A stretch of DNA of 64,000 nt from IMG/VR virus record IMGVR_UViG_2585427773_000003, one strand, 5' to 3'. The notes under the pieces are model-generated. The model saw nothing but the letters and a program-made list of their open reading frames with translations. It was not told where the DNA came from and made no database searches. Position numbers and translations under genes: made by a program. This document shows, piece by piece, positions 4,691-63,089 of this stretch (positions within the stretch are counted from its first letter, which is position 1; each line of letters starts with the position of its first letter). Origin of the DNA: a virus (Duplodnaviria; Heunggongvirae; Uroviricota; Caudoviricetes).

Positions 4691-4702
4691 GTAAGTACTT
4701 AC
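4691..4702. promoter_or_regulatory. Palindrome GTAAGTACTTAC (late-region operator family)
   Basis: Perfect 12-bp palindrome 55-66 bp upstream of holin-like start; same family as sites at 23868, 43437, 63069 and others. Confidence 0.5.
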
Positions 4703-5538
4703 ACATGAGCGCCGTAAATTGCCCCAACTTTAGTCCAAGTTGGAGCATTACCAGTAACAGCTTTACCAGCTGCTCCGCCGTTATATTCTGTACCGTTACC
4801 TTGAGTATTACATCTTCCTCCAGCAGCACCGACATTACCACCCGAACCGCCTGTATATGCACTAAGAGACCCCTCACCAACAGATCCTTTACCAGGAGCG
4901 GAAATAGTACCAGCAGTTGCACCGGAACTCATATGAGAGGAAGACCCACCAGCACCGAATGGGCGACCACCGCCGCCGCCAAATATTAGTTTACCCCTGT
5001 TACCGCCGCCACCGCCGCCGCCACCTCCAGCGATTGCACCATTATTCGTAATACGCAAGCGTGTACCGATGCCATTATTAATTGCGTTACCACCAGCAGC
5101 ACCGGCAGCGTTACTACCACCATTGCCACCGCGTCCATAGACAGTCACACCTGCGTTGATTACAAGGCTGATATAAGAGTTGGTAAGTGAACTCGGGAAA
5201 TCTAAACATGGCACGCCGCTACTGGACGACACCAGATCCCCTGTAATGGTAACAACGACTGGCGTCGCCCCCTGGGATTTTAAATAGTTGATCAGTGTGT
5301 CTTTGTTGTAGTTATGATTCGCACCGATGCTGTACTGAATTTCCTTAGAACGACCTGCTAACTGAGACATATTCCCAGCAGCAGACAATTGCACCGCCGT
5401 TCGAGCTGCACTCATCCATCTCTGGCCTGTCACACTGACAGCCGAAGACCCAATCCAACCGGGAACACCGACAATTGGCACATCTAATCTCCTTTTTGAT
5501 GTGAATATCCTGAATTGGTGAGGGGGGCCCCTCACCAT
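4699..5538 (-). CDS. Glycine-rich tail-fiber-associated protein (possible receptor-binding tip/adhesin)
   Basis: Immediately follows tail fiber gene with RBS aaggtga; poly-Gly tracts (GGGGGGGGGN) and G/S/N/T-rich composition. Confidence 0.4.
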   Translation of the reverse strand: MVRGPPHQFRIFTSKRRLDVPIVGVPGWIGSSAVSVTGQRWMSAARTAVQLSAAGNMSQLAGRSKEIQYSIGANHNYNKDTLINYLKSQGATPVVVTITGDLVSSSSGVPCLDFPSSLTNSYISLVINAGVTVYGRGGNGGSNAAGAAGGNAINNGIGTRLRITNNGAIAGGGGGGGGGNRGKLIFGGGGGRPFGAGGSSSHMSSGATAGTISAPGKGSVGEGSLSAYTGGSGGNVGAAGGRCNTQGNGTEYNGGAAGKAVTGNAPTWTKVGAIYGAHV

Positions 5539-5547
5539 TCACCTTGA

Positions 5548-8500
5548 TTACATTTTTGCCTTCAGTTCGCGCACTTCCTCGCGCAGCTCTTTGACAGCCT
5601 CGACCAACATGCCGATAACGCCGTTGTAGTTAAGACGCAGACGAGGCTCTCCTGACTGATCGTTATGGTCAACCGTTACCAGTTCAGGCTGAACATTCTG
5701 GACGTCCTGAGCGATGAGGCCGCCAGACTGCTCATACCGGTCACAGACCTGAATCTCGTACAGAACACCTTCGATCCGATCCAGCTTGTCGAGCGCTCGT
5801 TCAATCTTGCGAATATTGCGTTTGCTACGACGGTCAGAGCGGATATAAACGTCATTAAAGCTGCCATTACCGCCACAAACCCAAGTACCATCATTCTGGA
5901 GGTATGCGTTCGCATCCGTGCCGTTTGCGGTACGTGAGTTGTTGATCATGTAAAAACCAAACTGACTGTTTCCCAAGCCACCCAAGAAGAATTTGCGATC
6001 CGCGTGGTCTTGTCTCAACAACGCTTGTGCAGAGCTTGTACTTACAGCGTTCCTCCCGAAGATGACGTTCTGGTTACGCATATCTATCCACGCGCCAGAG
6101 CCGCTGTTGATGGAAAAACGGTTGGCGTAAACCCACGCACTTGACGTGATGTCACCCGTTACACTCAACGGCTTAAGGCTTTGCAGCGTGCTATTAACGA
6201 ACCTAAAAACATGGGCGCTATTGGCGTAAACATCCAGAATGCCATCTCCGTTCTGTTTAAAGCCGGTGTCATTGTCACCCAGAACAATGGAATTACCGCC
6301 AAGAGCACTGGATGTACCGATGCCCAGTGCACCATTCAATTGACCTCCAGATAATGATAACGCCCCAACATCAGCAGCAGTCGGTTTAATGTGCGAACTG
6401 TAAATTACATATACAGTTCCATCTGTCAGGCCTGTTGGTTTATTCGCTGTATAAGTTGGTGATGTATGAATCGTTACGCTGGCGTTACTGGTATAATCCC
6501 ACTGGATATTAACACCTGTGGCGTAATTACCTATTTCTACATAAATGTCATAGGTATCACCGGATGTATTCACCCATGCAAAATTAGTAAATCCAACCGA
6601 GGTCCGTCGCCATAATGCACCAGTAATACCTTTGGGGTTCCCATTTCCTGCACGCAGAACCAGCTCAGAGATGCCTGCTTGCTGCGGGGAGCCAACGTTA
6701 AACCCTGCGCCACCAATCAGGCTTATGTAAACCACGGAACTGGCTTGTGGCATGGTTACAGTTGCCAGCTTGAACCATCCGGCACCACCACTAAAAGACA
6801 TTGTTGCTGAGTTGATCGTGCCTATAGACCTTGGAGTTAGCTCAATGTTTTTAGAACCGTCAAACGACACCCCATTTATAGTTCTAGCGGTTTGTAACTT
6901 GGTCGCTGTCGCTGCATTACCGGTTGTGTTCTGGTTACCAGCAATGTTTACACCCGGCAGGTTGATATTGGCGGAGCCATCGAATGACACGCCGCCTATT
7001 GTGCGTGCTGTTTGCAGTTTTGTTGCAGTTGCAGCATTACCGTTCAAACTACCATTGATGCCGCCAGTAACATTGAGTCCATTACCGATCGTAACAGCAC
7101 CGCTGGTATTATTAATTATAATAGGTCGCAAACCGTTCCATGAACCTAATGTGTCTCCTGATGCTGTTAGCATGAAATATGTGTTCGATCCATCATTACG
7201 GATAAAGAATCCATAGTTGCCATAGGCAATGCGCAGACCATTCGCCGATTTTGAAATAATCTCGCCAGCAGCAGTTAATCCGCCAGTTAACGCTCCTCCA
7301 GAAAGCGATAATGCTCCTACATCAGAAGCTGTTGGTTTGTTTCTAGTGTTATAAGAACGACGCCAGCCTGGCGCATAATCACTCCCATTGTACACATAAA
7401 TAAATTCCGCATTATTAACACCACCATGACCTGATGTTGTTGTCGTTGTAACACGAATAGTGTAGTGGCTTGTTGACTTATTACTAAACACCTCAATCAC
7501 GGAACCAGATAGATCGATCCTACCGCAACCAGTGTCGTCTATATAATTATTGTTGGCGTAAGCCCATGAGCACCGTGCAATCCAATATTTGTTTGAAAAT
7601 GCACCCTGATTATTTAGCCAAGTTATAAATTGAGCAGTCGTAAATGCCGTTCCGTTACCACTATTTAACCATCCAGCGGCAGCGGTTGGCGCGTTTATAT
7701 CAGCCGGCTGAGGCATAAATCCAGTCGTGTAAACCTGCTCCCAACCACTTTCAAAACCATAGCCATCTCTTGAGGAACGGTAGAACAGACCTCCATTTTT
7801 ATAGTGAGCTTTAATTTGAAGCGTACGGCAACTACCTACACCGGTATAAAAGTTGGCAAGAATATAACTTTCGCCTGTTCTAACTACATTGTAAGCACCA
7901 GATTCAGCATTCCACGGCACGCCACCATCAGCATCAGCATATGACCCTGTTGCTCTTCTTGCGAAAGCGGCAACATGCGCGGCGGTTAAAGTAATATCTT
8001 TGGAACCATCAAACTCAACACCAGAAACCCGTCTTGGCGTTTGCAGCTTTGTTGCTGTTAATGCATTACCGTTCAGACTTGCGGACAGTTTGGTTCCAAT
8101 AACCAGTTCGCCGGTTGCGTTATCAATAGAAAACGGTCTTAATGTATTCCAGCCACCATAAACATCACCTTGATTGGTAAGCAGCAGGTGAGTTTTAGCG
8201 CCATCATTACGCCATAATGCACCATACTCCCCACCTATCATTCGAATCTGATTACCACCACGCGCTACAATTTCGTCTGTGGCAAAAAGTTTTTTGCACG
8301 ACAAGTTATCGTTAACGATTAACGAATTAGACTCATAAAAACCACGCCCACTCTTAAAATCAAGGATAACGTCCGCCGCGATACATTCAGTCGCCGGATT
8401 TGTTGCCCCAAACTTATAGGTCGTATCATTAACAACGAGATCAGCACCAGGTGCGGATATTGACAGGCCATCTTCGATAAACGCAAAAACAGGGAAAGCT

Positions 8501-10401
8501 GCGCCATCAACATAGAACACAGAGCGCAAATCATCGCCCTTATTACTCATCATTATTGAGTGGATGGCTCGTTCATTGTTTTGATATTGCCAGAACATTC
8601 CATAAGCATAACGCCCCCTGTCAGTCCAGCCGCCAGGCATAACAAATCCGTTAAACTCGCAGTTATTCATCGGATCGCCTGCGGTTCGCGTTGCCGTGGT
8701 GATAATGACCCTTGATGCCAGTTCGCTTACTGAGCCAGCAGAACGCATAACAACAACAGGGTAATATTTTCCAGATGTTGCACCTGCAGGAGCGTTAACC
8801 CGCACATAACGCATACCACGCTTATCAGCAAAGTCTGTTTTACTGACCGCGTTAATGTTGTTCAGGAAGCGTCCCTTATCGGGTATATCAGCGCCGTTCT
8901 GGTCTTTCTGCAGACGTTTCTCTGCATTGTCATAGGCTGATTTTACTGCCTTTGGCGTTGCCGCCAGCGTTTCAGACGTACTGTTGGTCGCACTGCTGAG
9001 CTGTACTATCCCCTTTTTCGTCGTGCTCGCATCCTCAAGCGCCACGGCGGATGCAATATCCTCTGCCCGTTTTGCCGCTGTCTCGGCGCGCGTTGCCGCG
9101 GATTCCGCCGTACTTTTGCTCTGTGCTGCCGCCGTCGCACTGCCAGCTGCCTCTGTCGCCTTCGTGGATGCTGTCGTGGCGCTGCCCTTCGCTGCGGACG
9201 CTTGTCTGGTCGCCTCATCTTTTGAAGCAGACGCAGATGATGCCGATGACGCCGCCGAACTGGCGGACGATGCGGCAGCCGTTTTTGAGGATTCTGCGCT
9301 GGTTTCCGACGCTTTCGCGTTCGTCTCGGATGTCTTCGCTGCGGAAGCAGACCTCGCTGCTGCGCTGGCCTGTTCAGTGGCTTCGCCAGCCTTCGTTGTG
9401 GCTGTTGAAGCAGACGATGCGGCACTTTCTGCCGATTTTCCGGCGGCGGTGGCACTGGCTGAGGCCTGCCCGGCACTTGTTGACGCGGCACTGGCAGACG
9501 ACGCAGCCGCTGTTTTTGAGCCTGCCGCAGCCGAGGCGCTCTGTCCCGCTGCCGTTTCAGAAGACCTGGCGTTTGTCTCAGACGTCTTTGCCGCCTTCGC
9601 GGAATTGCCTGCCGCCGTTGCCGAGGAAGCGGCACTACTGGCGCTCGAGGCTGCGTTAGTTTCTGATGATTTCGCTGCCTCTTTTGAGGCCGCCGCATCC
9701 CGGGCTGAGGTGGCAGCTTCTGACGCTTTCGTGGTCGCGGTGGATGCAGAAGTGGCTGCAGATTTTTGTGACGCTGCAGCATTCGTTTCAGACGTTTTCG
9801 CGGCACCGGCACTGGTGGCCGCCGCGCTTTTTGAGGACTCTGCAGCGGATGCACTTTGAGACGCTTGAGAGGCTTTTTCTCCAGCGGTATTGGCGCTTTC
9901 TGCTGCTGCGGCAGCACTGGCCGCCGCCTCACGAGCTTTGTCGCCAGCAGCGTCAATCGCGTCGGTGTTATTTTTATACCACTCAACGTTTTCGTTGTGC
10001 TCGTTGACAATCTGTATCAGCGGCTTAACGGTCACTTCTGTACCGTCTTCACGCTCGATTGTCACCTCATCCAGCGCAGTCAACCAACTGCGCATGGACT
10101 TGGAATCAGCCGACATACGCGACATTAGCGCAGTAAAGCGCGCGCTAAACTGTGTTAAGTCGCCTTCATAGGTCGTAATGATTCGGCACGGAACCTCAGA
10201 CTGAGTTTCGCCGGTATAAGGTTCTGAGAGAACAATATTCGTATCGCTTATTACGCGCTTGATCTCATACAGCTTATTGTCGGGGCCAATGACGATCATC
10301 CCCGGCAACACACCATTAGCTGTTACGTTCCAGGCTGTCCCTGCCCCAACCAGAGTATTGCTACCCTGTGTAAATGTGATAGTACCTTCCCTGTACCACA
10401 T
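5548..10401 (-). CDS. Long tail fiber protein with C-terminal intramolecular chaperone (peptidase S74-like) domain
   Basis: 1617 aa; Ala/Ser-rich low-complexity coiled segment; C-terminal SDRRSKRNI...IAQDVQ...VEAVKELREEV pattern typical of self-cleaving chaperone domains. Confidence 0.75.
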   Translation of the reverse strand: MWYREGTITFTQGSNTLVGAGTAWNVTANGVLPGMIVIGPDNKLYEIKRVISDTNIVLSEPYTGETQSEVPCRIITTYEGDLTQFSARFTALMSRMSADSKSMRSWLTALDEVTIEREDGTEVTVKPLIQIVNEHNENVEWYKNNTDAIDAAGDKAREAAASAAAAAESANTAGEKASQASQSASAAESSKSAAATSAGAAKTSETNAAASQKSAATSASTATTKASEAATSARDAAASKEAAKSSETNAASSASSAASSATAAGNSAKAAKTSETNARSSETAAGQSASAAAGSKTAAASSASAASTSAGQASASATAAGKSAESAASSASTATTKAGEATEQASAAARSASAAKTSETNAKASETSAESSKTAAASSASSAASSASSASASKDEATRQASAAKGSATTASTKATEAAGSATAAAQSKSTAESAATRAETAAKRAEDIASAVALEDASTTKKGIVQLSSATNSTSETLAATPKAVKSAYDNAEKRLQKDQNGADIPDKGRFLNNINAVSKTDFADKRGMRYVRVNAPAGATSGKYYPVVVMRSAGSVSELASRVIITTATRTAGDPMNNCEFNGFVMPGGWTDRGRYAYGMFWQYQNNERAIHSIMMSNKGDDLRSVFYVDGAAFPVFAFIEDGLSISAPGADLVVNDTTYKFGATNPATECIAADVILDFKSGRGFYESNSLIVNDNLSCKKLFATDEIVARGGNQIRMIGGEYGALWRNDGAKTHLLLTNQGDVYGGWNTLRPFSIDNATGELVIGTKLSASLNGNALTATKLQTPRRVSGVEFDGSKDITLTAAHVAAFARRATGSYADADGGVPWNAESGAYNVVRTGESYILANFYTGVGSCRTLQIKAHYKNGGLFYRSSRDGYGFESGWEQVYTTGFMPQPADINAPTAAAGWLNSGNGTAFTTAQFITWLNNQGAFSNKYWIARCSWAYANNNYIDDTGCGRIDLSGSVIEVFSNKSTSHYTIRVTTTTTSGHGGVNNAEFIYVYNGSDYAPGWRRSYNTRNKPTASDVGALSLSGGALTGGLTAAGEIISKSANGLRIAYGNYGFFIRNDGSNTYFMLTASGDTLGSWNGLRPIIINNTSGAVTIGNGLNVTGGINGSLNGNAATATKLQTARTIGGVSFDGSANINLPGVNIAGNQNTTGNAATATKLQTARTINGVSFDGSKNIELTPRSIGTINSATMSFSGGAGWFKLATVTMPQASSVVYISLIGGAGFNVGSPQQAGISELVLRAGNGNPKGITGALWRRTSVGFTNFAWVNTSGDTYDIYVEIGNYATGVNIQWDYTSNASVTIHTSPTYTANKPTGLTDGTVYVIYSSHIKPTAADVGALSLSGGQLNGALGIGTSSALGGNSIVLGDNDTGFKQNGDGILDVYANSAHVFRFVNSTLQSLKPLSVTGDITSSAWVYANRFSINSGSGAWIDMRNQNVIFGRNAVSTSSAQALLRQDHADRKFFLGGLGNSQFGFYMINNSRTANGTDANAYLQNDGTWVCGGNGSFNDVYIRSDRRSKRNIRKIERALDKLDRIEGVLYEIQVCDRYEQSGGLIAQDVQNVQPELVTVDHNDQSGEPRLRLNYNGVIGMLVEAVKELREEVRELKAKM

Positions 10402-10494
10402 GTTGAATATGCTCCTTGATTTAGCGGGTTATCCTTGCCCGCCATTAAGTAAATACTTACCTATTTTTACCGATATAAAATTTTTTTTCCACCA

Positions 10495-17309: not shown

Positions 17310-17391
17310 TGTTTCATCCTTGAAATAAGTAGGCGCTAACATCCTGTCAGCGCCACAATGATAGTAAATTAGTACTTACTTATCCAGATAC

Positions 17392-23867: not shown

Positions 23868-23883
23868 AGTAAGTATATACTTA
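23868..23883. promoter_or_regulatory. Perfect 16-bp palindrome GTAAGTATATACTTAC
   Basis: 50-65 bp upstream of major tail gene start; member of recurring late-region palindrome family. Confidence 0.5.
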
Positions 23884-23892
23884 CCAATTGAG

Positions 23893-27411: not shown

Positions 27412-27440
27412 AAAAAGGGTGGGCGTATAGCCCACCCTTA
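27412..27440 (-). terminator. Rho-independent terminator between major capsid and decoration genes
   Basis: Stem gggtggg/cccaccc with T-tract on minus strand. Confidence 0.7.
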
Positions 27441-27445
27441 AACAT

Positions 27446-27461
27446 AGATAATTACTTATCT
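27446..27461. promoter_or_regulatory. Palindrome AGATAAttacTTATCT
   Basis: Perfect 6-bp arms, between capsid stop and terminator. Confidence 0.4.
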
Positions 27462-27471
27462 ACCACACTGA

Positions 27472-29284: not shown

Positions 29285-30859
29285 TCACTCGTTCTCTTGA
29301 GTAGATGAGTCCCCATTCCCTCGGGGTTGATCTTGCCCGCTTTCTTGGGCCGTACCACGATCATAAGTAAGTACTGACTTATTTTCAAGGGTATTTAGAT
29401 CATTTTTTGGAGGAAAATTCAAGAGATCTTTATCAAATTCCTTTTTCATCGCCTCAGTAATGTTCGGGAAAATCTTCTCAATAAGCATTTCCATCTGGTG
29501 ACGACGTACAGAGTCCGGTGCCTGAAGTAATGACAGTTTCTCGGCAACAGAAAATTCATCAGTAAGGCCACGAATATCGAAACTTTCTGGATACGCAATT
29601 AAAGAGTGGTCTTCGTCCAGATCTGCCCCCATCCATTTCGCAACCAGTAGCATGATTTGGCGTTCAGCCCTTTCCAGACGCTCTGCTTTTGTGACAAGCA
29701 AGCTATTTACACGCTGGAAGTCATACATTTTTGCGGCACCAGATGAATTATCGATTCCCTGTGCGTTGTCCTGCTTCGTTCGCTCACCAGCTACACCAAC
29801 TGAATGGTAGATTTCGTTAATCACCGTCTTAATCGTAGTGATGATCATCTGAGCTTGTTTCGGGTCTGGTGACAGATAAAACGGCTGGTTTCCACCTTCA
29901 GAATCGTAGGTGAAGACTCGCTTTGTGCCCATTTCAAGCACTTTAGTGTGGTTTTCATCACCAGGTAAAAGCGACTGTACCGGTATAGCCAACTGGCTAA
30001 ATGTCTGATCCTGAATAATGGCATCAAGGTTTGACAGATAGTTTGCAACCGCACGATCAAGATAAGCGATATCATCGATCAACGATGGGCTGAAATACGG
30101 TGATTCACTTTCTCCAATACAATCAACAGGAAACACAGGAACTACGCCGAGATTATGCTCACCGCTATCCTCTAAAATAACTTTTGCCTGACGGCGACCT
30201 GCTCCACCAGCGCCCTTCTTCACTTCCTCACGGAACAGATACCACTCGTTTTGTGTCCACAGACGATAACGTTGGTATTCCTGACCTGTAGAAGTAAAAG
30301 GATCTGCGTCATCACGAGCGACTTCCACAATTAACGCCCACAACATATTCCCGTCGTCGTCCCATGCCACATCCAACATTTGCTGAGGTGAAATCCAGTA
30401 GGCGTAGGCGCGAGCATCTTTCTTTTTCTCGTCAGCTACTGACTCAACATCACCACTCATCGTGCTATCGACAACAACCCATATGCGACCGTAAATAGAC
30501 GACTGCAAATCAATAGCGGCCATAAATGAGTCAATAGAGGCATTCTGGCGAGTCGCACGTTTCCAGAAATTGCGGATCTGCTCTGGTGCCTCTTCGATAT
30601 TTCTATGAATGTCTTCTTTAAAGAGATATTTGTTGATGAGGTTTACCACCTCACGAGTGTGGTTGAAGCGATAAGCACGTTCAACTCGCTCCTTAAACTC
30701 CTGATCTCCCTCTTTAAAGTAACGAAAGATATTGTCTGTAAACCAACCACGCCCGCCAGCGTAAGTGCTGGCGAGGAAGTCCCAATGTTCTTTTTTCTTT
30801 TCGTATTCCGGGTGGCGTCGCGCCACCAGATCCTTAATTTGTTTGTCGTTCAATTCCAT
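29285..30859 (-). CDS. Portal protein
   Basis: 524 aa, position after terminase large subunit. Confidence 0.7.
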   Translation of the reverse strand: MELNDKQIKDLVARRHPEYEKKKEHWDFLASTYAGGRGWFTDNIFRYFKEGDQEFKERVERAYRFNHTREVVNLINKYLFKEDIHRNIEEAPEQIRNFWKRATRQNASIDSFMAAIDLQSSIYGRIWVVVDSTMSGDVESVADEKKKDARAYAYWISPQQMLDVAWDDDGNMLWALIVEVARDDADPFTSTGQEYQRYRLWTQNEWYLFREEVKKGAGGAGRRQAKVILEDSGEHNLGVVPVFPVDCIGESESPYFSPSLIDDIAYLDRAVANYLSNLDAIIQDQTFSQLAIPVQSLLPGDENHTKVLEMGTKRVFTYDSEGGNQPFYLSPDPKQAQMIITTIKTVINEIYHSVGVAGERTKQDNAQGIDNSSGAAKMYDFQRVNSLLVTKAERLERAERQIMLLVAKWMGADLDEDHSLIAYPESFDIRGLTDEFSVAEKLSLLQAPDSVRRHQMEMLIEKIFPNITEAMKKEFDKDLLNFPPKNDLNTLENKSVLTYDRGTAQESGQDQPRGNGDSSTQENE

Positions 30860-30870: not shown

Positions 30871-30889
30871 TAGATAACTACTTACCTAT
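30871..30889. promoter_or_regulatory. GATAACTACTTACCTATC motif (late-region family)
   Basis: Between terL stop and portal start; shares TTACCTATC arm with sites at 55888 and 63069. Confidence 0.4.
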
Positions 30890-32890: not shown

Positions 32891-32945
32891 CCTGCTTCCG
32901 TATATATTTAATAAGTTACTTATTATTTATATATACAGAAGCAGG
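32891..32945. repeat. 55-bp imperfect palindrome, copy 2
   Basis: Near-identical to copy 1; lies 117 bp upstream of terS start. Confidence 0.9.
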
Positions 32946-32969: not shown

Positions 32970-33236
32970 TTACATCACCAGTAACTTCGCTTTGGCTCGA
33001 CCTAAAGTAGTTAACCCAAGAGTTCGGCGGTGATAGCGATTGTCACTGCGTTGGCGCGTATGCCCTTTCTCCACCAGCCCCTTTTTTATCAGAGCGCGAA
33101 TTGAGAACTGGATACTTTGCTTGGTTGTCTTGTACGGCAAAACTTCAAGCAATTCGTCCAGGTCAAGTAGATGACCTCGCTCATAACCGAGATTGAGCGT
33201 TTTGATGATGTCCTTTTGTTTATCGGTTAACGTCAT
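32970..33236 (-). CDS. Small putative winged-helix DNA-binding protein
   Basis: 88 aa, basic, helix-turn-helix-like segment. Confidence 0.35.
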   Translation of the reverse strand: MTLTDKQKDIIKTLNLGYERGHLLDLDELLEVLPYKTTKQSIQFSIRALIKKGLVEKGHTRQRSDNRYHRRTLGLTTLGRAKAKLLVM

Positions 33237-35027: not shown

Positions 35028-35692
35028 GCAGCCATCTCCCCGGAAGAGATCTTCTCCGCATATGCCACAAATGCGTCTACCCCGCTTTCTCCCGTCATTT
35101 CTTCCATGTGGGCAAGCAAATCACCAACAACAATGGCAGAGCCAGCAGGGAGCGTTTTAAAGCCCAATACGTCGACAACACGTACTTCTTCCGCTGCAAC
35201 TTCACGACTGATCTCGGTGTGTTCATCCTTCTGTCGTTTAGTTTCTTCGCCAAGATCGATAACTAGCGAGTCGGTGTCCATTTCTTCTGTCATACTGCCA
35301 ACGAGAACATTCAACTCACGCTCTTCAAAGCCGAAAACCTCGATATCGTCCAGAACAAGCGACTCAAGCTCTTTCTGTAGCTTAATTGCATCGTAATCAA
35401 TGCTGGCAAGTCGGTTATCTTCAAGGCGCTTCGCACGAACCTCGTCATCACTGAGATCATCGCGAACAATAACCGGTACGCGCTCAAGTCCAGCAAAAAT
35501 TGCAGCCTCACGGCGGCCGTGGCCAGTAATAATTACGTCGTTCTTATCGACCGTAATTGGCTGGTCAAATCCGCGCTTTTTAATGGCTGCGGCTAGATCT
35601 CGGATCTGCTGTTCATCATGCTTTTTGGCATTCATCTCATAGGGAATAAGATCTGCCGGGTCGCGATATACGATTTCAAACTTTTTGGTCAT
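35024..35692 (-). CDS. ParB-like nuclease domain protein
   Basis: ParB N-terminal motif ITGHGRREAAIFAGLERVPVIV. Confidence 0.55.
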   Translation of the reverse strand: MTKKFEIVYRDPADLIPYEMNAKKHDEQQIRDLAAAIKKRGFDQPITVDKNDVIITGHGRREAAIFAGLERVPVIVRDDLSDDEVRAKRLEDNRLASIDYDAIKLQKELESLVLDDIEVFGFEERELNVLVGSMTEEMDTDSLVIDLGEETKRQKDEHTEISREVAAEEVRVVDVLGFKTLPAGSAIVVGDLLAHMEEMTGESGVDAFVAYAEKISSGEMAA

Positions 35693-36372
35693 TACATACG
35701 CTCCTTGTAGTAGTCGACCAGCCATACCAGAGCCTCACCAGCGTTCTCCATTTCATTACCGGTGTTAATAGCCTGCTCTTTGATGATGTTTTTTATGGTT
35801 TCTGCAACACGATCTGACGCATCGAAAGTTACTTTGAAGCGCATGGTCTGATGTTCCGCACCCACACGTTCGGTTTTCTCTCGTTTGTCGGTATCGACAG
35901 GCTCATCACTACCACGAGACAACGCCTCCAGTGCTTCAAGGTCGATTGCCGCCTCTTTTGCTAAAACCATCGAGATTTCGTCGTCATACGGGGCGATTTC
36001 AGACAGTTGATAGTCAAGTTCTGACTGAATTTCTTCAATGAAGCGTTGCAATGCGATTTGGTCGTCTTCACCGTATCGCTCGTTGTCCACCAGTGACATC
36101 TGTTTAGCTACGACATCGCTAATTTTGCCCACAGAAAGCACCGGAACCGTTGAAATTCCTTGCTCAATAGCAGCACGCCAGCGATGTTCGCCGCCGAGGA
36201 TTTCAAAAAATCCATCTTCAAGTTCACGAGCCAAAATTGGCTTAAAAAAGCCCAATTTTTCGATAGAACCTTTCAGTTTTTCAAAATTCTGCGCACCAAC
36301 CGAATTGGTGTTCCAGGTATTCGGGCGAAGGTTGGCAACATCAACCTGCAAAATCGTGATTTTTACATCCAT
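35692..36372 (-). CDS. ParB-like nuclease domain protein
   Basis: ParB N-terminal motif ILGGEHRWRAAIEQGISTVPVL; ATG at 36372 preferred over GTG at 36390. Confidence 0.55.
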   Translation of the reverse strand: MDVKITILQVDVANLRPNTWNTNSVGAQNFEKLKGSIEKLGFFKPILARELEDGFFEILGGEHRWRAAIEQGISTVPVLSVGKISDVVAKQMSLVDNERYGEDDQIALQRFIEEIQSELDYQLSEIAPYDDEISMVLAKEAAIDLEALEALSRGSDEPVDTDKREKTERVGAEHQTMRFKVTFDASDRVAETIKNIIKEQAINTGNEMENAGEALVWLVDYYKERM

Positions 36373-36390: not shown

Positions 36391-36408
36391 TAAGTAATCA
36401 CTTACTTA
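36391..36408. promoter_or_regulatory. Palindrome TAAGTAAtcacTTACTTA in divergent promoter region
   Basis: Perfect 7-bp arms, between ParB-like gene (minus) and helicase (plus). Confidence 0.45.
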
Positions 36409-41070: not shown

Positions 41071-41096
41071 AGCGCCCACTATGGGCGCTTTTTTCG
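41071..41096 (+). terminator. Rho-independent terminator
   Basis: agcgcccactatgggcgct hairpin plus tttttt. Confidence 0.7.
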
Positions 41097-41115
41097 TTTC
41101 CAATACTTCCACAAT

Positions 41116-41141
41116 AACGCGCCATCAATGGCGCGTTTTTT
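41116..41141 (+). terminator. Second tandem terminator
   Basis: aacgcgccatcaatggcgcgtt hairpin plus ttttt. Confidence 0.6.
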
Positions 41142-41539
41142 ATTGTCTTTAACTCACTCCAACAACATAAAAATAAGCGCCAAAATAACGCCATAGACGC
41201 GCTTTTATATCCTTGCCAGTACATACCCATTACTTAACACATTAACGCGCTTAAAACGCGTTATAGCGCATAGTTAATCATTGGCTTTTAGTCTTGCTTT
41301 ATGATCCGCGTTTATTTGTCGGTGCGGATCGGTATTTTGTTTTGTTCTGTATCCGCTCGCGTATTATGTGCGCGTGATTTTTCACATAATCACACCACTT
41401 AATCACGTATGTGATTATGCTACGAAAGAAATCTGGATGTCTCAGGTGACGAAAGTCATCATAATTTTCCCCGCTCACCTGTCCGACAACCGCTGGTTGG
41501 ATTCCACCAGCTTCCCGATGTTTTTTTCTACACAAAGGC

Positions 41540-41665
41540 AAATGCAGCCGTTTCCCGAAAAAATCCTGGCCGTTCCCCGTCGGCTCATGAATACGTTCCT
41601 CGCCGCTTCTGAAAATTTCCCTGCGGCAGCTGGTGGCTATAGAGAAAGGGCCGTTTCTGGCCCTC
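41540..41665. repeat. Iteron-like direct repeats, cluster A
   Basis: Repeated GCCGTTTCCCGAAAA-like units at about 20-bp spacing. Confidence 0.45.
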
Positions 41666-41672
41666 TTCTCAG

Positions 41673-42155
41673 TTACACGCCATCAAGGATGTGGATGCGG
41701 TTGCTTGCGTATACATTCAGCATAAAGTTAGCGCAAAACAGTTTCCATGTATCAACGCCAGCGGTATACGTAATGTTTTTGCATTTAATTGCATTGTTGG
41801 CGATCCGCATCCCCTGCGATACTGCTTCATCGTCGGAAAATTTGAACGACGATTGAGTTTTAATCCAGACAGAAATCTGCGTAGCGAACTCAATCAGCTT
41901 GGACTGGCAGAATCGCCCGGAGCGCACCGGAAAGACGAACGTTCCGAATCCAGAATTTACCACATACGCTTTCTCAAATACCCGCGAGTAACGACGATTG
42001 CCAATGATGTCGCGTGCAATAATGCATTTTTCTTGTGCTGACAGTTCTACCGTCTCATTGTCGCGCCATGCACCAAGTACTCGTTTTTCAATGTCAGAGA
42101 ACGTTACAGCGATATTGCCATGTGCGGGTGCGTTTACAGTAGCGATAAAATTCAT
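41673..42155 (-). CDS. Hypothetical protein
   Basis: 160 aa ORF; operator-like motif 42177-42189 just upstream. Confidence 0.45.
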   Translation of the reverse strand: MNFIATVNAPAHGNIAVTFSDIEKRVLGAWRDNETVELSAQEKCIIARDIIGNRRYSRVFEKAYVVNSGFGTFVFPVRSGRFCQSKLIEFATQISVWIKTQSSFKFSDDEAVSQGMRIANNAIKCKNITYTAGVDTWKLFCANFMLNVYASNRIHILDGV

Positions 42156-42359
42156 GATTAATTCCTTATCGTAAATAACAAATTGTTTTCTTGTTGGTGT
42201 TAATTATCGTTGTACGAATAAGGCGTCAAAGTGGAAAGTTGCGGTAGCCGGACGGGAACAGGTGGGTTTGTCGGTTGCCTGGAGGTAAGAGGTTGGTGTT
42301 TTTAGCCTGCGGGAAACAAGATGGTCATTTAAGGCCACCAATGCTGATGGCCTTAATAA

Positions 42360-42503
42360 TTATCGCACGATTACGCTAAGGATCTTTTCCTCAACTGATT
42401 TGTTGTTGCGACTAAACTGCCTTGCGTATCTGATGACAGAAGAGGCGTTTTGCTTTCTGACCATCTCGGCTCTTTCCTTCAGGCGTTTCTTGAAATCGCC
42501 CAT
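42360..42503 (-). CDS. Possible small basic protein (47 aa)
   Basis: ATG at 42503, basic composition; below ORF-track size cut-off. Confidence 0.2.
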   Translation of the reverse strand: MGDFKKRLKERAEMVRKQNASSVIRYARQFSRNNKSVEEKILSVIVR

Positions 42504-42505
42504 AT

Positions 42506-42880
42506 TTACCACCAGGCGCAGAAGGTCAGTCTGTTATTGTGAAAGTCGTGGTTCTTAATCAGATCTTCCACAAGCTCTTTCAACTGCCCCACATCATGCC
42601 AGTAACCTTCATCGTACTCCTGACTGCCGAAGAAAAAACCTTCCCGGGTAGGCAAGTACTCTTCGCAATTACTTTCGTTTATGTGCATCAAATGAGCCTT
42701 CAGAAAACAAATGTCATTCATCGTTAATTCTAAAAGCTCACAATTTTCGACTTCACCTACGTTGCGCTCCATCCACCCAACGAGCGCATTGAACTTACGG
42801 AAGTAAGCAACCTGCTTTCTGGATGCCTCGTTATTCAGATCGTTTTTAGGTTGTGTCTCGATATAGATATCAAGTCCCAT
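42506..42880 (-). CDS. Hypothetical protein
   Basis: ORF starting MGLDIYIETQ. Confidence 0.4.
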   Translation of the reverse strand: MGLDIYIETQPKNDLNNEASRKQVAYFRKFNALVGWMERNVGEVENCELLELTMNDICFLKAHLMHINESNCEEYLPTREGFFFGSQEYDEGYWHDVGQLKELVEDLIKNHDFHNNRLTFCAWW

Positions 42881-43436: not shown

Positions 43437-43452
43437 GTAAGTATGTACTTAC
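43437..43452. promoter_or_regulatory. Palindrome GTAAGTAtgTACTTAC
   Basis: 44-59 bp upstream of start at 43393. Confidence 0.45.
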
Positions 43453-43455
43453 AAT

Positions 43456-55845: not shown

Positions 55846-55905
55846 GTGTTTTCTCTTATCGTTTAGTTATTACATTCTTACACAAATTAAGTAAGTATTT
55901 ACCTA

Positions 55906-58309: not shown

Positions 58310-58311
58310 AA

Positions 58312-58648: not shown

Positions 58649-59218
58649 TCAATTAGAGCTTTGAAAGGCTTTGTGTGGCTGTGTTGCGAGGTTATGTCGA
58701 TGGCTTAACTCACGCATCATGTCTTCAAGCCGACTCTTTGTGTCGTCGAGTTGGTCGGCCATTGCTCCCAAAAGCTGACGAACGGCCATCGGATCATCGC
58801 TGTTTAGTGATGGCATTTTATAACCCGCCTGAGAAGACATAAGATTGAACGCAGACATCAACATCGTTAGAGAGGATTTAAGCCCAGCAATTTCACGATC
58901 TTTGCTGGCAATAATCGCCTCACTCTTGTTAGTGTCATCAGTTCGTTGAGTCTCGCTCACCATATCCAAAGTCGCCTGCAACTTATCAGCGCGCTCTTTT
59001 TCAGCAAGATAATGAACACCGAAATGATGTGCTAAAGCTACAACCTGAGTTGGCTCTTCAAAGGTGGACTCAAAATTAAGTGCTGTAACCACTCTCTCAA
59101 ATATGGAAACGTCTTCTATTCCTCGAAGAATGGCTAACATTTTGACCAGTTCATTAGCATCCATTTCTTCGAATAAGGCGTTTTGTTCATCAGCTATCGC
59201 TTTGCATTTCTTGCACAT
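58649..59218 (-). CDS. Hypothetical protein
   Basis: 189 aa; operator-like motif 59237-59250 upstream. Confidence 0.45.
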   Translation of the reverse strand: MCKKCKAIADEQNALFEEMDANELVKMLAILRGIEDVSIFERVVTALNFESTFEEPTQVVALAHHFGVHYLAEKERADKLQATLDMVSETQRTDDTNKSEAIIASKDREIAGLKSSLTMLMSAFNLMSSQAGYKMPSLNSDDPMAVRQLLGAMADQLDDTKSRLEDMMRELSHRHNLATQPHKAFQSSN

Positions 59219-59515
59219 GTGTTTTTCCTAATGCTTAAACAAGTTGTTTTCTTATTGGCTTTATTGTGATGTGGCATAAAAGGGGAGCAAGCTAAACGTA
59301 AAGGTGCAAACTCTCTATTTCGGTCAACGAAACACAAGGGCCATTTGGCCCTTGTCATTAACACGTTGCTTTACGGACTAGCGGATAAGCGAAGTAGATC
59401 GCCAGACCAATGAGGACGCCATCAGAAATGACAGACATCATCTTTCCCGTAAAATCCACCAACACCGCCATCACCAGAAGAGCAATGACGATCACAAGCC
59501 GGAATCTCTCAAGCA

Positions 59516-59941
59516 TTAGAGATAAGCATCCAGTGACAACTGAAGCGCCTGGGCGATCTTTTTAAGTGCCTGCTCTTCTTGTTCGCCAATGCCGTCCTGA
59601 TCGGCAATATCAAGGCACAGACACAGAACATCGACCGCCTCTGGAGTACCCGCAATATCAGACAGCTCACGAATAGCCTGTGCATTAGCAGAACGAGGGG
59701 ACGCTTCGTAACGAGCACGGATATTGGCGCTCATTTGGGCAATTTCACCAGCAAACGGAGAAAACGCAGGCAGAGCTGCAATTGTCTTCTCAAGAATGGC
59801 AATTTCTTTTGCGTCACATGTGCCGTCGGCATAGGAGATCATGTACGCGCCCCACACGGTGGCCTCAACCGCATCACGGTTCTCCATTTTTTTGACTTCG
59901 ATAACAGCTTTACGAGTTTTCTTTTTGAAGAAACCTAACAT
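59516..59941 (-). CDS. TerB-like domain protein
   Basis: ISYADGTCDAKEIAILEKTIA resembles TerB-type helical motif; operator-like motif 59965-59980 upstream. Confidence 0.35.
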   Translation of the reverse strand: MLGFFKKKTRKAVIEVKKMENRDAVEATVWGAYMISYADGTCDAKEIAILEKTIAALPAFSPFAGEIAQMSANIRARYEASPRSANAQAIRELSDIAGTPEAVDVLCLCLDIADQDGIGEQEEQALKKIAQALQLSLDAYL

Positions 59942-60034
59942 GTGTTTTCCTTTTGTTATTTGTCAAAACAAGTTGTTTTATAGTTTCATAAATTGCTTAC
60001 GCAAAGATGGTCAATGCATATGCACTAACAGCCG

Positions 60035-60223
60035 TCAGAAATAACCAAGTACCGAACCGACTGGAAAAACAAAAATCCCAACTACACGAGCCAAGGTCAT
60101 GCCAGCCTGAAACTGGAGATCGCCAGAGCAAACAAGTTTTATAATGTTCGATACCCAACCGGCGGCCATGAGGGCCAGAATTGCCAGCCAAATTTTTCCA
60201 AAGTGATTTGAAAACAAGTTCAT
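60035..60223 (-). CDS. Small membrane protein
   Basis: 62 aa with two hydrophobic segments. Confidence 0.4.
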   Translation of the reverse strand: MNLFSNHFGKIWLAILALMAAGWVSNIIKLVCSGDLQFQAGMTLARVVGIFVFPVGSVLGYF

Positions 60224-60438
60224 ACAACCGCCTTAGTCACAACATGATCCTGAGTAACTGGATGAAATTGAGGTATCGCATCCACCGTCATCCCATCCAG
60301 AGTGACAGGACGCTCTACTGGAGTGGTGGTAATTGTCGTCGACGGAGGTGTGGTGATGGATGAATCCGGCATCAAAAGGCTCTGGCCGGCTGGAACAGCT
60401 ACCGTCGCCAGTGAAACTATAATGAGAACGTAGGCCAT
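60220..60438 (-). CDS. Small secreted protein
   Basis: Signal-peptide-like MAYVLIIVSLATVAVPAG; T/P-rich. Confidence 0.35.
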   Translation of the reverse strand: MAYVLIIVSLATVAVPAGQSLLMPDSSITTPPSTTITTTPVERPVTLDGMTVDAIPQFHPVTQDHVVTKAVV

Positions 60439-60727
60439 TGGTTTCAGCCTCTTTCTTTGAAAATTTTCCATTCGAACTGTCCTTGTTGTTTTTCTCCTTC
60501 ACTAAAGGCCGTGCATTTTTCGCTTGGTGTGAAGAACCAGAGGTAACAATCGCCCCCACGTTCGCAACAACTGACGCTTGCTTATCTAAACGTTCATTCA
60601 GCAACCGAACGGTAGTCTCCAGTTCATCAAGACGTGACAGAACACGACCGCTAAATAATTCGGCCAAAATTTGACGTAGTGAACGAGGACGTTTAGTTGC
60701 AGAAGTGAAATAGGTTTGACGTGCCAT
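60233..60727 (-). CDS. Hypothetical protein, 3' extent ambiguous (overlaps 60220-60438 in another frame)
   Basis: N-terminal 60 aa look protein-like, C-terminal half is S/G/C-rich low complexity suggesting frame error or true end near 60540. Confidence 0.25.
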   Translation of the reverse strand: MARQTYFTSATKRPRSLRQILAELFSGRVLSRLDELETTVRLLNERLDKQASVVANVGAIVTSGSSHQAKNARPLVKEKNNKDSSNGKFSKKEAETNGLRSHYSFTGDGSCSSRPEPFDAGFIHHHTSVDDNYHHSSRASCHSGWDDGGCDTSISSSYSGSCCD

Positions 60728-60875
60728 GTGGACTCCATCCAGTGTCAGAAAGAGTTGCGGCTGGCGATTGCCAGCCGCCTTTCTCGTTCCATCCTGGAAC
60801 TGTGTCTTACCGACACATTGTCATCCTGACGCCGATAAGATACATGATTTAAAATGATAGGTAAACACTTACTTA

Positions 60876-61469
60876 CTATTTGTTATAAACAAAACCAATA
60901 TCTTTCTTGTGAGGCATATCTGCTGCTGAAAAAGCTGCGATCTTCGCGAGTCGATCACATATTTCATTTTCACGATGCCCGGCGTGACCTTTAACCCACT
61001 TCCAGCGAACATTATGTCGACTTGCGGCCTCATCCAGACGCTTCCACAGATCAACATTCTTTACCGGTTTTTTGTCAGAAGTCATCCATCCATTGCGTTT
61101 CCACCATTTCATCCACTGTGTCATGCCGTTTTTCAGATACTGGCTATCAGAGTGCAAAATAACGTTGCATGGATATTTCAAACGCTCCAGCCCGATAAGT
61201 GCCCCCATCATCTCCATGCGGTTATTGGTGGTGCTATGAAAACCATCTGAGAACTCGCGTTCCTCACCACGATACTGGAGAACGATACCGTAACCGCCCG
61301 GGCCACCCGGATTTTTAAGGCAAGAGCCATCACTAAAGATTTTCACGGTTTTGAGCTGGGGATTGAACTCTACGACAGGCGTTGTGGGATTGGTGCGGGG
61401 AGAATTTTTGTTTTTGTCTTTTTTGCGAGTTTTTGCTTGCGATCGGGCTGGTGTCTTCGTCGTCATATA
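60876..61469 (-). CDS. rnhA: Ribonuclease HI with basic N-terminal extension
   Basis: DGSC, NNRME, DSQY, KGHAGH.EN..CD motifs with catalytic D/E/D/H/D in place. Confidence 0.8.
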
Positions 61470-61559
61470 AACTCCTGAATCAAGCGCCGCGCCGATTTTT
61501 CCTCGCGCGTGCGCACACGCGTGCGTGTTAATAATTATTAAAATAAACAAATTACTTCC

Positions 61560-62047
61560 CAGAACAGGTTTTTATAAACCTGAACTGAACGAACGAAGTG
61601 AGTGAAGTTCACCTCGAACGAAGTGAGAGGTTGTCTTTTCAGGTAATACTCTCCCAGGGAGGTGAGTATAAAATTCCTCACCAACCTGGTCGTTTCATAA
61701 CCTGAAAAGCTATGGTCTAAGTCTACTGCCAGCTTAGACTTGGGAAGTTATGGATGACAGCACCCCAGAACCGAGATCTTCCCACACTTTATGAAGGGGA
61801 GTACTGGATTCAACCTCTCGAAACACCCCAGACTCGACAATCATAAAGTGACCCTTGTCTCTGCTCACTTTGGTTCCCCCTTCCCCGACACCTATACGGC
61901 ACCGGTTCTACGCTGGTAGTGAGCTTTTTTAAACCTGACGCCAGTGACGCTTACCCCCACCCATCAGGTCGAGCCTCCAGTCTACGACTGGAAACTATCA
62001 GATCTTAGCACTTACAATTCACTTTATGAATAGTTTGTACTTATCTA
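61560..62047. other. Structured non-coding region (candidate ncRNA or origin)
   Basis: About 490 bp without plausible ORF; multiple hairpins (caggttt..aaacctg, ggtgag..ctcacc, tctaag..cttaga) and direct repeat cgaacgaagtgag x2. Confidence 0.4.
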
Positions 62048-62278
62048 TCATTGTGATTGATTATTTTCTCGACCATGTAGTTGAACATTCAAGGCAAACA
62101 CCTCATTGATCAACTCACCTAAAAGCTGTTCAACAAGTTCGCGATGCTCGCCAAGATGTAAGCACTTAATTGCCCACTCGTACAAGTTGAAAGCCTGCTC
62201 ACGATCTTTCATCATTTCACGAGCCTGGGCCAGAAAATCGCTCTCTACGAGCGCAACGACATTAGTCGGGTATGACAT
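62048..62278 (-). CDS. Hypothetical small protein
   Basis: ORF starting MSYPTNVVAL. Confidence 0.4.
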   Translation of the reverse strand: MSYPTNVVALVESDFLAQAREMMKDREQAFNLYEWAIKCLHLGEHRELVEQLLGELINEVFALNVQLHGRENNQSQ

Positions 62279-62386
62279 GTTGGTTTCCTTAAAGTGGTTC
62301 ATAAAATCGATTTTAAAGCGTCTGGGAAGGGGTTCTAGTGGATTCTGTAGTGGTGTTCAGGTCTGGGAGTCTCTGATATAAAACAG

Positions 62387-62441
62387 CCTGCTTCCGTATA
62401 TTAATAATTAATATGTAGTTATTTATATATACAGAAGCAGG
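62387..62441. repeat. 55-bp imperfect palindrome, copy 3 (variant core)
   Basis: Same cctgcttccgtata...atatacagaagcagg arms as copies 1 and 2, with altered central AT-rich core. Confidence 0.85.
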
Positions 62442-62464
62442 CTAATTACAGACGCCAGAACAAA

Positions 62465-63058
62465 CTAAGCAGCCTTCTTTGATGGTCTTTTTTTCCTGAT
62501 CACATTCGCAGGATCATACCCTCCCAGACTTTTCATGACATCCAAAGGGATCTTGCTTATAGAGTGCCCAGCGTCCTGACAAAATCCTCGAAAAACAACG
62601 AGCATACTGCCACCGGGGTTGATGTTTACTTCTACCTGACCCAAATTGACGTCAGGCTCGACAAACGCTACGCGGCCACCAGACAGAATAATCGTCTCAT
62701 TCGCACACTCTGTTGCACGCTCATACCACTTTGTATCGAGGGATTGAGGAATTAGCATCACTGTTGTAACTCCGCGAGCCTGCTCACGTATAGCCGCATC
62801 AATCCAGGGGGAGATTTTGGAGTAGGGTGGATTGAGGAAGGCAATTGTACCTGGCTGTCCCCATTCAGATTTCAAAGCATCACGCTCAACGCCTATGAAA
62901 TTAGGCAGCTTCGCATTGTCCTTGTTGCAGGCAACGTCAACATCAAATGTCACTCCAAGATAACGTTGAATGGCAGAAAACAGCCAGTCAGGTGTTCTCC
63001 AGAGGTCACGAAGAGAGTTGTCGCGCTTTCGCTGTTTGATTTTTTCGGCTGCAATCAT
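62465..63058 (-). CDS. Phage-type DNA N6-adenine methyltransferase
   Basis: 197 aa; FLNPPYS motif, small Dam-like architecture. Confidence 0.7.
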   Translation of the reverse strand: MIAAEKIKQRKRDNSLRDLWRTPDWLFSAIQRYLGVTFDVDVACNKDNAKLPNFIGVERDALKSEWGQPGTIAFLNPPYSKISPWIDAAIREQARGVTTVMLIPQSLDTKWYERATECANETIILSGGRVAFVEPDVNLGQVEVNINPGGSMLVVFRGFCQDAGHSISKIPLDVMKSLGGYDPANVIRKKRPSKKAA

Positions 63059-63068
63059 CGTCTTTCTC

Positions 63069-63089
63069 GATAGGTAAGTGATTACCTAT
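63069..63089. promoter_or_regulatory. Palindrome GATAGGTAAgtgaTTACCTAT
   Basis: Perfect 8-bp arms 11-31 bp upstream of methyltransferase ATG. Confidence 0.45.

Follow-up and report, generated by a model that had tools for sequence, protein, structure and literature searches.

The window analysed here, a stretch of 64,000 nt from the tailed-phage record IMGVR_UViG_2585427773_000003 (Caudoviricetes), carries a short gapped palindrome that recurs in front of its genes. Most of these genes lie on the minus strand. Lysis, tail, head and terminase genes occupy the interval from 4 to 33 kb, while the interval from 33 to 64 kb holds a ParB/ParB/ATPase cluster, a UvsW-like helicase gene, many small open reading frames (ORFs) and methyltransferase genes. 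Compared over a 10-kb piece, the window is 98.8% identical to Escherichia phage CMS-2020a, 97.9% to Cyrano and 81% to Salmonella phage SSU5. Cyrano is pLF82 of E. coli LF82, and the window runs as the reverse complement of the Cyrano record. Judged from sequence, the window is part of an SSU5-type phage-plasmid. These are widespread elements: tblastn with the portal protein matched 966 PLSDB plasmids, and the portal-positive plasmids come from Klebsiella, Escherichia, Acinetobacter, Enterobacter, Yersinia pestis (pMT1), Salmonella Typhi (pHCM2) and Aeromonas. Phage-plasmids of this type often carry resistance genes (PMC9600943).

All eleven palindromes listed by a first-pass annotation of this DNA are present in the window; its intervals were 1–4 nt off-centre, so most of them, taken literally, are no palindromes. 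On the gene-sense (minus) strand, the eleven sites fall into one 18-mer with a 7-nt arm, a 4-nt centre and a second 7-nt arm, TARRTAA-GTAN-TTAYYTA, with the ideal form TAGGTAAGTACTTACCTA; with the centre left free, the general form is TARRTAA-N4-TTAYYTA. Each copy has 0–3 arm mismatches, except the one at 43438, which has four in the 18-mer register and none when read as GTAAGTA-N2-TACTTAC. A twelfth copy, absent from the earlier list, was found at 29364–29381, inside the 3' end of the portal gene. In the pooled logo, two-fold symmetry extends weakly beyond the 18 bp, to about 26 bp.

Enrichment over shuffled sequence, on which the annotation had made its case depend, was clear. The pattern GTAAGTN4ACTTAC with up to two mismatches gave 13 matches against 1.68 expected, and none of 100 shuffles reached 13. 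Exact matches to TARRTAANNNNTTAYYTA numbered 7, against a rough expectation of about 0.007 estimated from base composition. A position weight matrix (PWM) gave 12 matches, against 0.02–0.35 in 100 dinucleotide shuffles. Since this matrix was trained on the same window sites that it then counted, the independent evidence consists of the pattern count with its shuffles and the conservation across genomes. Eleven of the 12 copies are intergenic or overlap a stop codon, the remaining one being that in the portal coding region. The distance to the next sense-strand start is 11–130 nt, in keeping with the proposed position upstream of start codons, and the downstream genes named at that time (holin-like, tail fibre, L, major tail, portal, the ParB/helicase divergent gap and methyltransferase) agree with the Cyrano annotation.

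Among the lysis and tail genes, the copy at 4688–4705 (sense TGTGTAAGTACTTACCTA) overlaps the stop of ORF 4699–5538 and lies 51 nt upstream of the holin-like start (4636), with homologues at Cyrano 26658 and SSU5 27475. The copy at 10446–10463 (TAGGTAAGTATTTACTTA) separates a J-like tail gene from the tail-fibre gene, whose ATG comes 44 nt later, and a GC hairpin stands behind the motif; homologues of this copy are at Cyrano 22449 and SSU5 21938. Between minor tail genes M and L, the copy at 17365–17382 (TAAGTAAGTACTAATTTA) lies in the spacer of TGGATA-17-TATCAT (17386 to 17358), and a 10-bp hairpin follows at 17354–17332 (homologues Cyrano 15530 and SSU5 15590). The copy at 23870–23887 (TTGGTAAGTATATACTTA) overlaps a sigma-70-like TTGAAT-18-TATACT and is located about 51 nt upstream of the major tail start that is preceded by a Shine–Dalgarno (SD) sequence; homologues were found at Cyrano 9019, SSU5 9068 and, in pMT1, L012:16678. 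At the last two genes, the longest-ORF starts of L (17342, the start also annotated in Cyrano as CYRAN_17) and of major tail (23854) fall in or just after the hairpin or motif, and in-frame ATGs with a good SD 33–36 nt further downstream are more plausible starts.

Among the head genes, the copy at 27445–27462 (TAGATAAGTAATTATCTA, perfect arms) starts 9 nt past the major-capsid stop, 46 nt upstream of an Ig-like gene, and directly downstream of it stands a hairpin resembling an intrinsic terminator (27437–27421) followed by T5. The copy at 29364–29381 (TAAGTCAGTACTTACTTA) lies in the 3' coding region of the portal gene (29285–30859; peptide LENKSVLTYD), 100 nt upstream of a scaffold-like gene. 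It fills the spacer of TTGAAA-17-TATGAT (29388 to 29360), the best sigma-70-like match in its 20-kb scan interval. The copy at 30871–30888 (TAGGTAAGTAGTTATCTA) fills the gap between TerL and portal, overlapping the TerL stop and ending 11 nt before the portal ATG, with the SD overlapping the motif end.

In the second half of the window, the copy at 36391–36408 (TAAGTAAGTGATTACTTA, perfect arms) occupies the divergent gap between the UvsW-like helicase gene (plus strand) and the gene of the first ParB protein, ParB1 (minus strand). It lies 18 nt from the ParB1 ATG (36372), and on the plus strand a TATAAT facing the helicase gene stands 1 nt past the motif. The copy at 43438–43455 (ATTGTAAGTACATACTTA; perfect as GTAAGTA-CA-TACTTAC) comes directly after a terminator hairpin with a T-run, 44 nt upstream of an ATG, and overlaps a sigma-70-like TTGTAA-17-TAGAAT (homologues Cyrano 96687 and SSU5 93166). 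The copy at 55888–55905 (TAGGTAAATACTTACTTA; Cyrano 84621, SSU5 84179) abuts the stop of a 561-aa DUF4942/methylase-like gene and precedes the next gene by 42 nt. The copy at 60858–60875 (TAAGTAAGTGTTTACCTA; Cyrano 79652, SSU5 79905) is followed by TATCAT and lies 130 nt upstream of the gene at 60233–60727. The last one, at 63071–63088 (TAGGTAATCACTTACCTA, perfect arms; Cyrano 77437, SSU5 77652), is 12 nt upstream of the ATG of an adenine-methyltransferase gene.

The annotation had seen these sites as punctuation of a late operon and as possible targets of a late regulator, a framing that proved too narrow. Scanning the whole Cyrano genome, joined from three pieces, at a threshold of at least 14 bits gave 25 matches, about 21 of them strong and nearly all in gaps upstream of sense-strand genes. 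Beyond the window, copies stand ahead of the helicase/primase block, the gene after primase, SSB, genes after RecA, SbcD, RNR-alpha and ThyX, and a weaker copy lies in the gap beside the putative repressor CYRAN_45. SSU5 gave 26 matches at homologous gaps. Late-operon specificity is thus ruled out by the copies before early-type genes in both whole-genome scans: in the genome of about 108 kb, the motif precedes lytic genes of every functional class, including replication, recombination and nucleotide metabolism, and not only late ones.

Conservation at homologous positions in related phages was confirmed, with copies in matching gaps of SSU5, pMT1, Kluyvera, Acinetobacter, Aeromonas and farther relatives. 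The 18-mers of the window and of SSU5 share 88% identity, against 74% for flanks of 40 nt, and changes within the motif keep the consensus. In the Acinetobacter relative, whose portal is 52% identical, the motif reads TTAGTAAGCGCTTACTAA and occurs in about 30 copies in about 92 kb; in the Aeromonas relative its form is TCAGTAAGTGTTTACTGA. A scan of a genome collection added 29 loci from Alpha-, Beta- and Gammaproteobacteria, and the commonest gapped palindrome in most of these is a variant of the motif (TAAGTCA-N4-TGACTTA, TAAATCA-N4-TGATTTA or TAAGTAA-N4-TTACTTA), and relatives from the three classes carry 5–11 copies per 21 kb. Loss of the motif in Xenorhabdus/Morganella was considered and turned out to be an artefact of the search pattern, as the variant TAGGTAT-N4-ATACCTA, which departs at arm position 7, is present there. 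The same arm position differs in a Cronobacter-type lineage (the lineage of the Cronobacter sp. JZ38 plasmid, loci L013 and L042; a close relative with a portal 80% identical), where the half-sites are TAGGTAG/TAGGTGG, e.g., GATAGGTGGTTAACTACCTATC. Despite this half-site shift, the lineage keeps the motif positions and the embedded TTGAAA-17-TATGAT promoter.

Individual positions are kept at the same depth. The TerL–portal gap has a motif copy in every lineage examined, and the copy in the helicase/ParB gap is kept in SSU5, Acinetobacter, Aeromonas, Magnetospirillum and others. The order of major-capsid stop, motif and GC hairpin with T-run is maintained in Alpha-, Beta- and Gammaproteobacteria (loci L021:13580, L034:13696, L022:13569, L037:13598, L026:13552, L025:13562 and L038:13501 among them). 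The portal-internal copy and its promoter are shared by SSU5, pMT1, Xenorhabdus, Morganella and Photobacterium, the promoter being kept as TTGAnA-17-TATnAT in the last three.

Overlap with promoter-like sequences was also studied. In three 20-kb scans covering 4001–64000, sigma-70-like matches were rarer than in dinucleotide shuffles (7 vs. 22, 18 vs. 26 and 20 vs. 30). Despite this depletion, five of the 12 window copies overlap such a match (9–10 of 12 positions; predicted promoters). In two cases, TTGAAA-17-TATGAT and TGGATA-17-TATCAT, the palindrome fills the 17-bp spacer. The portal-internal promoter would drive the scaffold-like and major-capsid genes, a unit that ends at the motif and terminator at 27421–27462. 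The motif centre lies between about −27 and +8 relative to the candidate −10 elements, a variable offset which fits a repressor operator better than the box of an activator with fixed geometry.

Other promoter arrangements were tried and rejected. A fixed sigma-70 register (−35 at −9 to −4 and −10 at +14 to +19 of a 14-mer core) looked suggestive in the pooled logo, and mirrored controls show a symmetric −10-like signal. Class-II activator geometry, with the centre near −42, was found in a few Paraburkholderia and Magnetospirillum copies only and is not general. A phage sigma factor was also considered, since a protein of Acinetobacter p5759_1 (L039:17690-18355, between a MoxR-like ATPase and DnaE) is annotated as sigma-70 family; its Pfam Sigma70_r2 match has E = 0.003, below the cut-off, and neither Cyrano nor SSU5 gave a homologue.

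RNA-seq values of single Cyrano genes were taken from the S1 table of the LF82 paper (PMC9928086). In the LB lysogen, expression of the genes that follow motif copies is close to or at the floor, also for CYRAN_4 and CYRAN_56, which stand behind near-consensus promoters; the XRE-family gene CYRAN_45 is expressed, and ParB1 is at the floor. In macrophage samples at 6 h, a rise of 6.4 log2 in the gene that diverges from the repressor gene suggests partial induction. In these samples, the largest rises (log2) between adjacent lytic genes fall at motif junctions, namely +3.6 from CYRAN_55 to 56, +3.65 from 59 to 60, +2.5 from 11 to 12 (the junction of the window copy at 23870–23887) and +2.4 from 33 to 34, with a step also along CYRAN_3, 4 and 5. 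Drops occur at junctions of motif plus hairpin, −3.0 from CYRAN_5 to 6, where the copy at 27445–27462 lies, and −1.9 from 16 to 17. These steps are suggestive only.

The composition of the arms bears on whether the site is read as DNA or as RNA. Over 197 sites, arm mismatches on the sense strand comprise 38 G.U and 34 A.C, and single copies often mix half-site types. An RNA hairpin would favour sense-strand G.U and disfavour mixed arms. Since neither expectation is borne out, a dimeric protein on double-stranded DNA is indicated, and the data point to recognition at that level rather than at the RNA level. An intrinsic-terminator function of the motif itself was not supported, the arms being AT-rich and without a U-tract, with separate GC hairpins following some copies. 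The proposal that the sites bind a regulator or act as internal promoters or operators is therefore partly supported: symmetry, deep conservation, sigma-70-like overlap and some RNA-seq steps speak for predicted sites of a dimer-type regulator at promoters genome-wide, and the lack of late specificity speaks against the original wording.

The most likely regulator, and a candidate binder, would be the XRE-family protein encoded by CYRAN_45, which lies beside the integrase gene and outside the window. In E. coli, pHCM2 and Klebsiella elements, the promoter of this gene reads TTTACA-N16/17-TAATAT, 1 nt, then GGTAAGCACTTACC. As this copy begins 1 nt past the −10, the motif covers the predicted start site. 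The regulator occurs on 995 plasmids, whose taxon profile equals that of the portal gene, and its recognition-helix pattern N.N.(L/V)S.I is kept as far as Acinetobacter. In the Cronobacter-type lineage with the TAGGTAG half-site, SLIK in this helix becomes SNIK, which is the sole suggestive covariation between a candidate and the site.

From these observations, it may be proposed, with about an even chance of being right, that the copies are dispersed operators embedded in promoters and silence the lytic programme of the phage-plasmid. The motif would be the double-stranded DNA site of a dimeric regulator encoded by the phage-plasmid, with copies in or abutting sigma-70-type core elements at the 5' ends of most lytic units (replication, recombination, nucleotide metabolism, head, tail and lysis). 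As long as the element is a plasmid-prophage, the regulator on these sites would block RNA polymerase, silence every unit and autoregulate its own gene. After induction, the vacated sites would fire as many internal promoters. Where a terminator hairpin follows the copy, upstream read-through would stop and a new transcript would start, the clearest case being the series of portal 3' end, scaffold, capsid and terminator. If the motif edge is the −10, the predicted start lies inside the 5' arm of the hairpin, so new transcripts would escape the terminator that stops upstream read-through. Motif, enrichment, placement, deep conservation, coincidence with promoter-like elements and the lysogen silence of the genes behind the copies are observed, and we infer that a protein binds and represses, which protein this is and where transcripts begin.

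In logic, the scheme comes nearest to the P1 C1 network, in which one repressor holds the lytic genes silent, and in layout to the many late promoters of P1. P1 is also a phage-plasmid with one short operator scattered over many promoters, and its operators overlap −35 and −10 elements variably (NC_005856 annotation). In Cyrano, about 21–25 copies are dispersed over the genome, with predicted-promoter overlap at five of the 12 window copies and at the XRE start site. The operator sequences differ, those of C1 being asymmetric 17-mers (NC_005856) in contrast to the 7-4-7 palindrome, and in P1 the structural genes are controlled indirectly via Lpa, whereas here the motif is also found inside the head, tail and lysis operons. 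A network of many sites would explain the evolutionarily frozen specificity. As in Cro/CI-type operators, bound by XRE helix-turn-helix (HTH) proteins, the site is an 18-bp symmetric one with one copy on the regulator's own promoter. The P22 c2 operator is likewise 18 bp long and two-fold symmetric, with conserved outer half-sites and a loose centre. Classical immunity regions have 3–6 clustered operators at two promoters, unlike the more than 20 dispersed ones here, which include structural operons and one coding sequence.

Several observations weigh against promoter-embedded operators of an XRE repressor. A TAnnnT at the motif edge is present in about one third of pooled sites and is as common on the mirrored side (46 forward vs. 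43 mirrored of 144; PWM mean 0.88 vs. 1.25), so it may belong to the symmetric site and not to a directional promoter. A credible −35 is found in a minority of copies, with TTG in place in 24 forward against 11 mirrored. Several copies lie 1–12 nt from a start, with the SD overlapping the motif end (portal, 11; methyltransferase, 12; Methylocystis TerS), which implies that those genes are also translated from read-through transcripts. The test of RNA-seq steps over all junctions was not significant (p = 0.2–0.5). The XRE protein is only 56–66% identical among enterobacterial lineages with the same motif, and immunity repressors usually diversify, whereas the motif is conserved across bacterial classes. 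Moreover, no XRE homologue was detected in SSU5 (tblastn, first 100 kb), yet all motif copies are kept. The SSU5 annotation has no integrase between the tRNA and the CobT-like gene, the part corresponding to Cyrano 41090–42574. All this would fit a lytic derivative that has no repressor.

A rather unlikely alternative is that the copies mark activator-dependent promoters like the late promoters of P1, in which the palindrome replaces the −35 and a lytic activator dimer recruits sigma-70 RNA polymerase to the adjacent TAnnnT. Most copies indeed lack a good −35 and have TAnnnT at or next to the downstream edge, and many internal promoters in structural operons follow the P1 pattern. P1 late promoters also carry an inverted repeat just upstream of TAnnnT with a poor −35. 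The Lpa box of P1, AAGTKACTT centred at −22 (from NC_005856), resembles the AAGT/ACTT core of the enterobacterial motif, which lacks the central base. The exact box AAGTTACTT is carried by three large palindromes of the window, treated at the end, and not by the 18-mer. In non-enterobacterial lineages, where the 4-bp centre is free, the likeness vanishes. In P1, the −10 TAnnnT is fixed 4 nt past the box; here, the distance to TAnnnT is variable. P1 boxes precede late genes only, whereas the motif also stands before early-type and methylase genes. The P1 Lpa system itself was therefore rejected, as box and geometry differ and phmmer with Lpa found no match among all ORFs from Cyrano, from SSU5 and from the loci of Acinetobacter and Aeromonas.

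The best candidate for such an activator, also a candidate binder, is an 88-aa protein (phrog_900; 32970–33236, minus strand), a winged helix by sequence pattern. Its gene is placed like P1 lpa, directly upstream of the terminase genes, with large palindrome 2 and TerS following it. The recognition-helix-like segment TTKQSxQFSIRALIKKGL is conserved across the supergroup, in all lineages, and SSU5 has the 88-aa gene though it is without the XRE gene. The mRNA of the 88-aa gene goes up by about 3.6 log2 in macrophages at 6 h, with the four genes upstream of it staying low, implying a promoter of its own inside the preceding gene, and it is induced with motif-preceded genes (step of +3.0 from CYRAN_122 to 123). 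Binding at the XRE start site would then shut off repressor synthesis. An activator needs fixed geometry, however, and the distance from motif to −10 varies by more than 30 bp. The near-consensus promoters TTGAAA-17-TATGAT and TTGAAA-17-TATCAT should need no activator, yet they are silent in the lysogen. The 88-aa protein is not homologous to P1 Lpa (no phmmer match; hhalign probability 0.1), its helix-like segment is the same in the Cronobacter-type lineage although the half-site changed there, and early-type genes are preceded by the motif as well.

Less readily reconciled with the data, and improbable in our view, is that the copies are loading sites similar to parS or the operators (OB) of KorB, from which ParB1 spreads or slides. 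Loaded in this way, ParB1 could act as a silencer or organiser of the whole genome, or could link transcription to replication or packaging in lytic growth. ParB1 (35692–36372, minus strand; probable true ATG at 36372, longest ORF to 36390) is a further candidate binder, present and syntenic at every locus examined, with one of the best-conserved motif copies in its own divergent promoter gap. Downstream of it are a second ParB_N protein, an ABC-type ATPase and phrog_886, a cluster conserved throughout the supergroup. The N-domain of ParB1 is of ParB/Srx type, the CTP-switch kind (Pfam ParB_N, E = 3e-13), with GGEHRWRAA, a GxxRxxA-type motif, and Foldseek matches ParB, Noc and KorB at E of about 1e-8 to 1e-5. 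The C-terminal strand-helix-helix (HQTMRFKV...NAGEALV; HQxMRFKV...NAGDALV as a general form) is nearly invariant and the most conserved part across about 1500 homologues, and AlphaFold models this segment confidently as a ribbon-helix-helix (RHH)-like unit.

Precedents exist in KorB of the IncP plasmid RK2 and in Noc, ParB proteins whose palindromic sites are numerous and dispersed. These systems share with the present one a dozen or more palindromic promoter sites per mobile element, a ParB-family gene in a site-bearing operon and the CTP-type motif. In contrast to them, ParB1 has no recognisable HTH: none was detectable, profile matches to PDB ParB proteins span positions 5–136 only, and the middle region is an acidic linker modelled at low confidence. 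With its variable 4-bp centre, the motif departs from parS and OB sites, and the close tie to gene starts and terminators is unexpected of partition sites. As its mRNA is at the floor in the lysogen, ParB1 cannot be the prophage silencer. The strand that would read the site does not co-vary with it: HTVMRFKV occurs with AGTCA, AGTAA and AATCA, and HQTMRFKV with TAGGTAA and TAGGTAG. Covariation with half-site class was sought for the ParB1 strand and the winged-helix segment and rejected for both, each being unchanged in the Cronobacter-type lineage.

A comparably small chance may be given to the view that the palindrome is no classical repressor operator and would serve as the loading or recognition site of a hitherto undescribed regulator type common to the whole SSU5 supergroup, either a KorB-style sliding clamp built from the ParB N-domain and the RHH-like unit and acting from about 25 sites, or the 88-aa protein as a single master activator. 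If true, early, middle and late genes would all be turned on by a single factor, acting from promoter cores with bidirectional symmetry.

It is very unlikely that the element acts as RNA, that is, as a transcribed 7-bp hairpin in intercistronic mRNA giving a processing, stability or translational-operator signal upstream of the ribosome-binding site. Many copies do lie 1–20 nt from an SD or start codon within polycistronic units, and symmetric arms exceed the prediction for independent half-sites (44 vs. 38, 71 vs. 56 and 31 vs. 21), an excess inflated by site selection, since sites were taken only when 5 or more of the 7 arm positions were symmetric. The G.U and A.C counts are without strand bias, and the mixed half-sites, which break pairing, are common. 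The primary sequence of the arms, beyond pairing, is kept across bacterial classes, and copies in divergent promoter gaps or right after terminators stand outside the upstream mRNA. The absence of any function, with chance AT-rich palindromes or a decayed repeat, has nothing in its favour except the AT-rich, low-complexity look of the motif and can be considered already refuted by the shuffle controls, the confinement of the copies to intergenic gaps and the retention of the motif, between diverging flanks, in homologous gaps of relatives ranging from Alpha- to Gammaproteobacteria.

In the searchable literature, no description was found of the motif strings, of SSU5 regulation or of the lysis–lysogeny circuitry of SSU5-type elements. 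The motif and its regulon thus appear undescribed, while the kind of system is already known. An 18-bp site at the head of nearly every lytic unit would provide a map of transcription units, a specific bait for finding the master regulator and a handle for silencing or inducing SSU5-type elements. Its conservation from Alpha- to Gammaproteobacteria with lineage-specific half-site shifts is a natural test set for the co-evolution of regulator and site.

Finally, the window contains three large palindromes of 55–60 bp with common GC-rich outer arms (AGCCTGCTTC...GAAGCAGGCT). The first (41–97) has outer arms CCTGCTTC...GAAGCAGG and an AT-rich core with the centre AATAAGTTACTTATT. The second (32891–32945), flanked by the 88-aa winged-helix gene and TerS, lies where the packaging/late block begins, and the third (62385–62443) has the same outer arms as the others and a diverged centre. 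In two of the three, the centre is AAGTTACTT, the −22 box of P1 late promoters. The resemblance noted earlier between the motif core and this centre holds, with AAGT-T-ACTT in the large palindromes and AAGT-ACTT in the motif. In Cyrano, the large palindromes head three blocks, one for replication, the packaging/late block and a further one. The equivalent palindrome upstream of the terminase region contains, at its centre or close to it, a true copy of the motif in Acinetobacter and Qipengyuania; in Chelativorans, it contains a near-copy.

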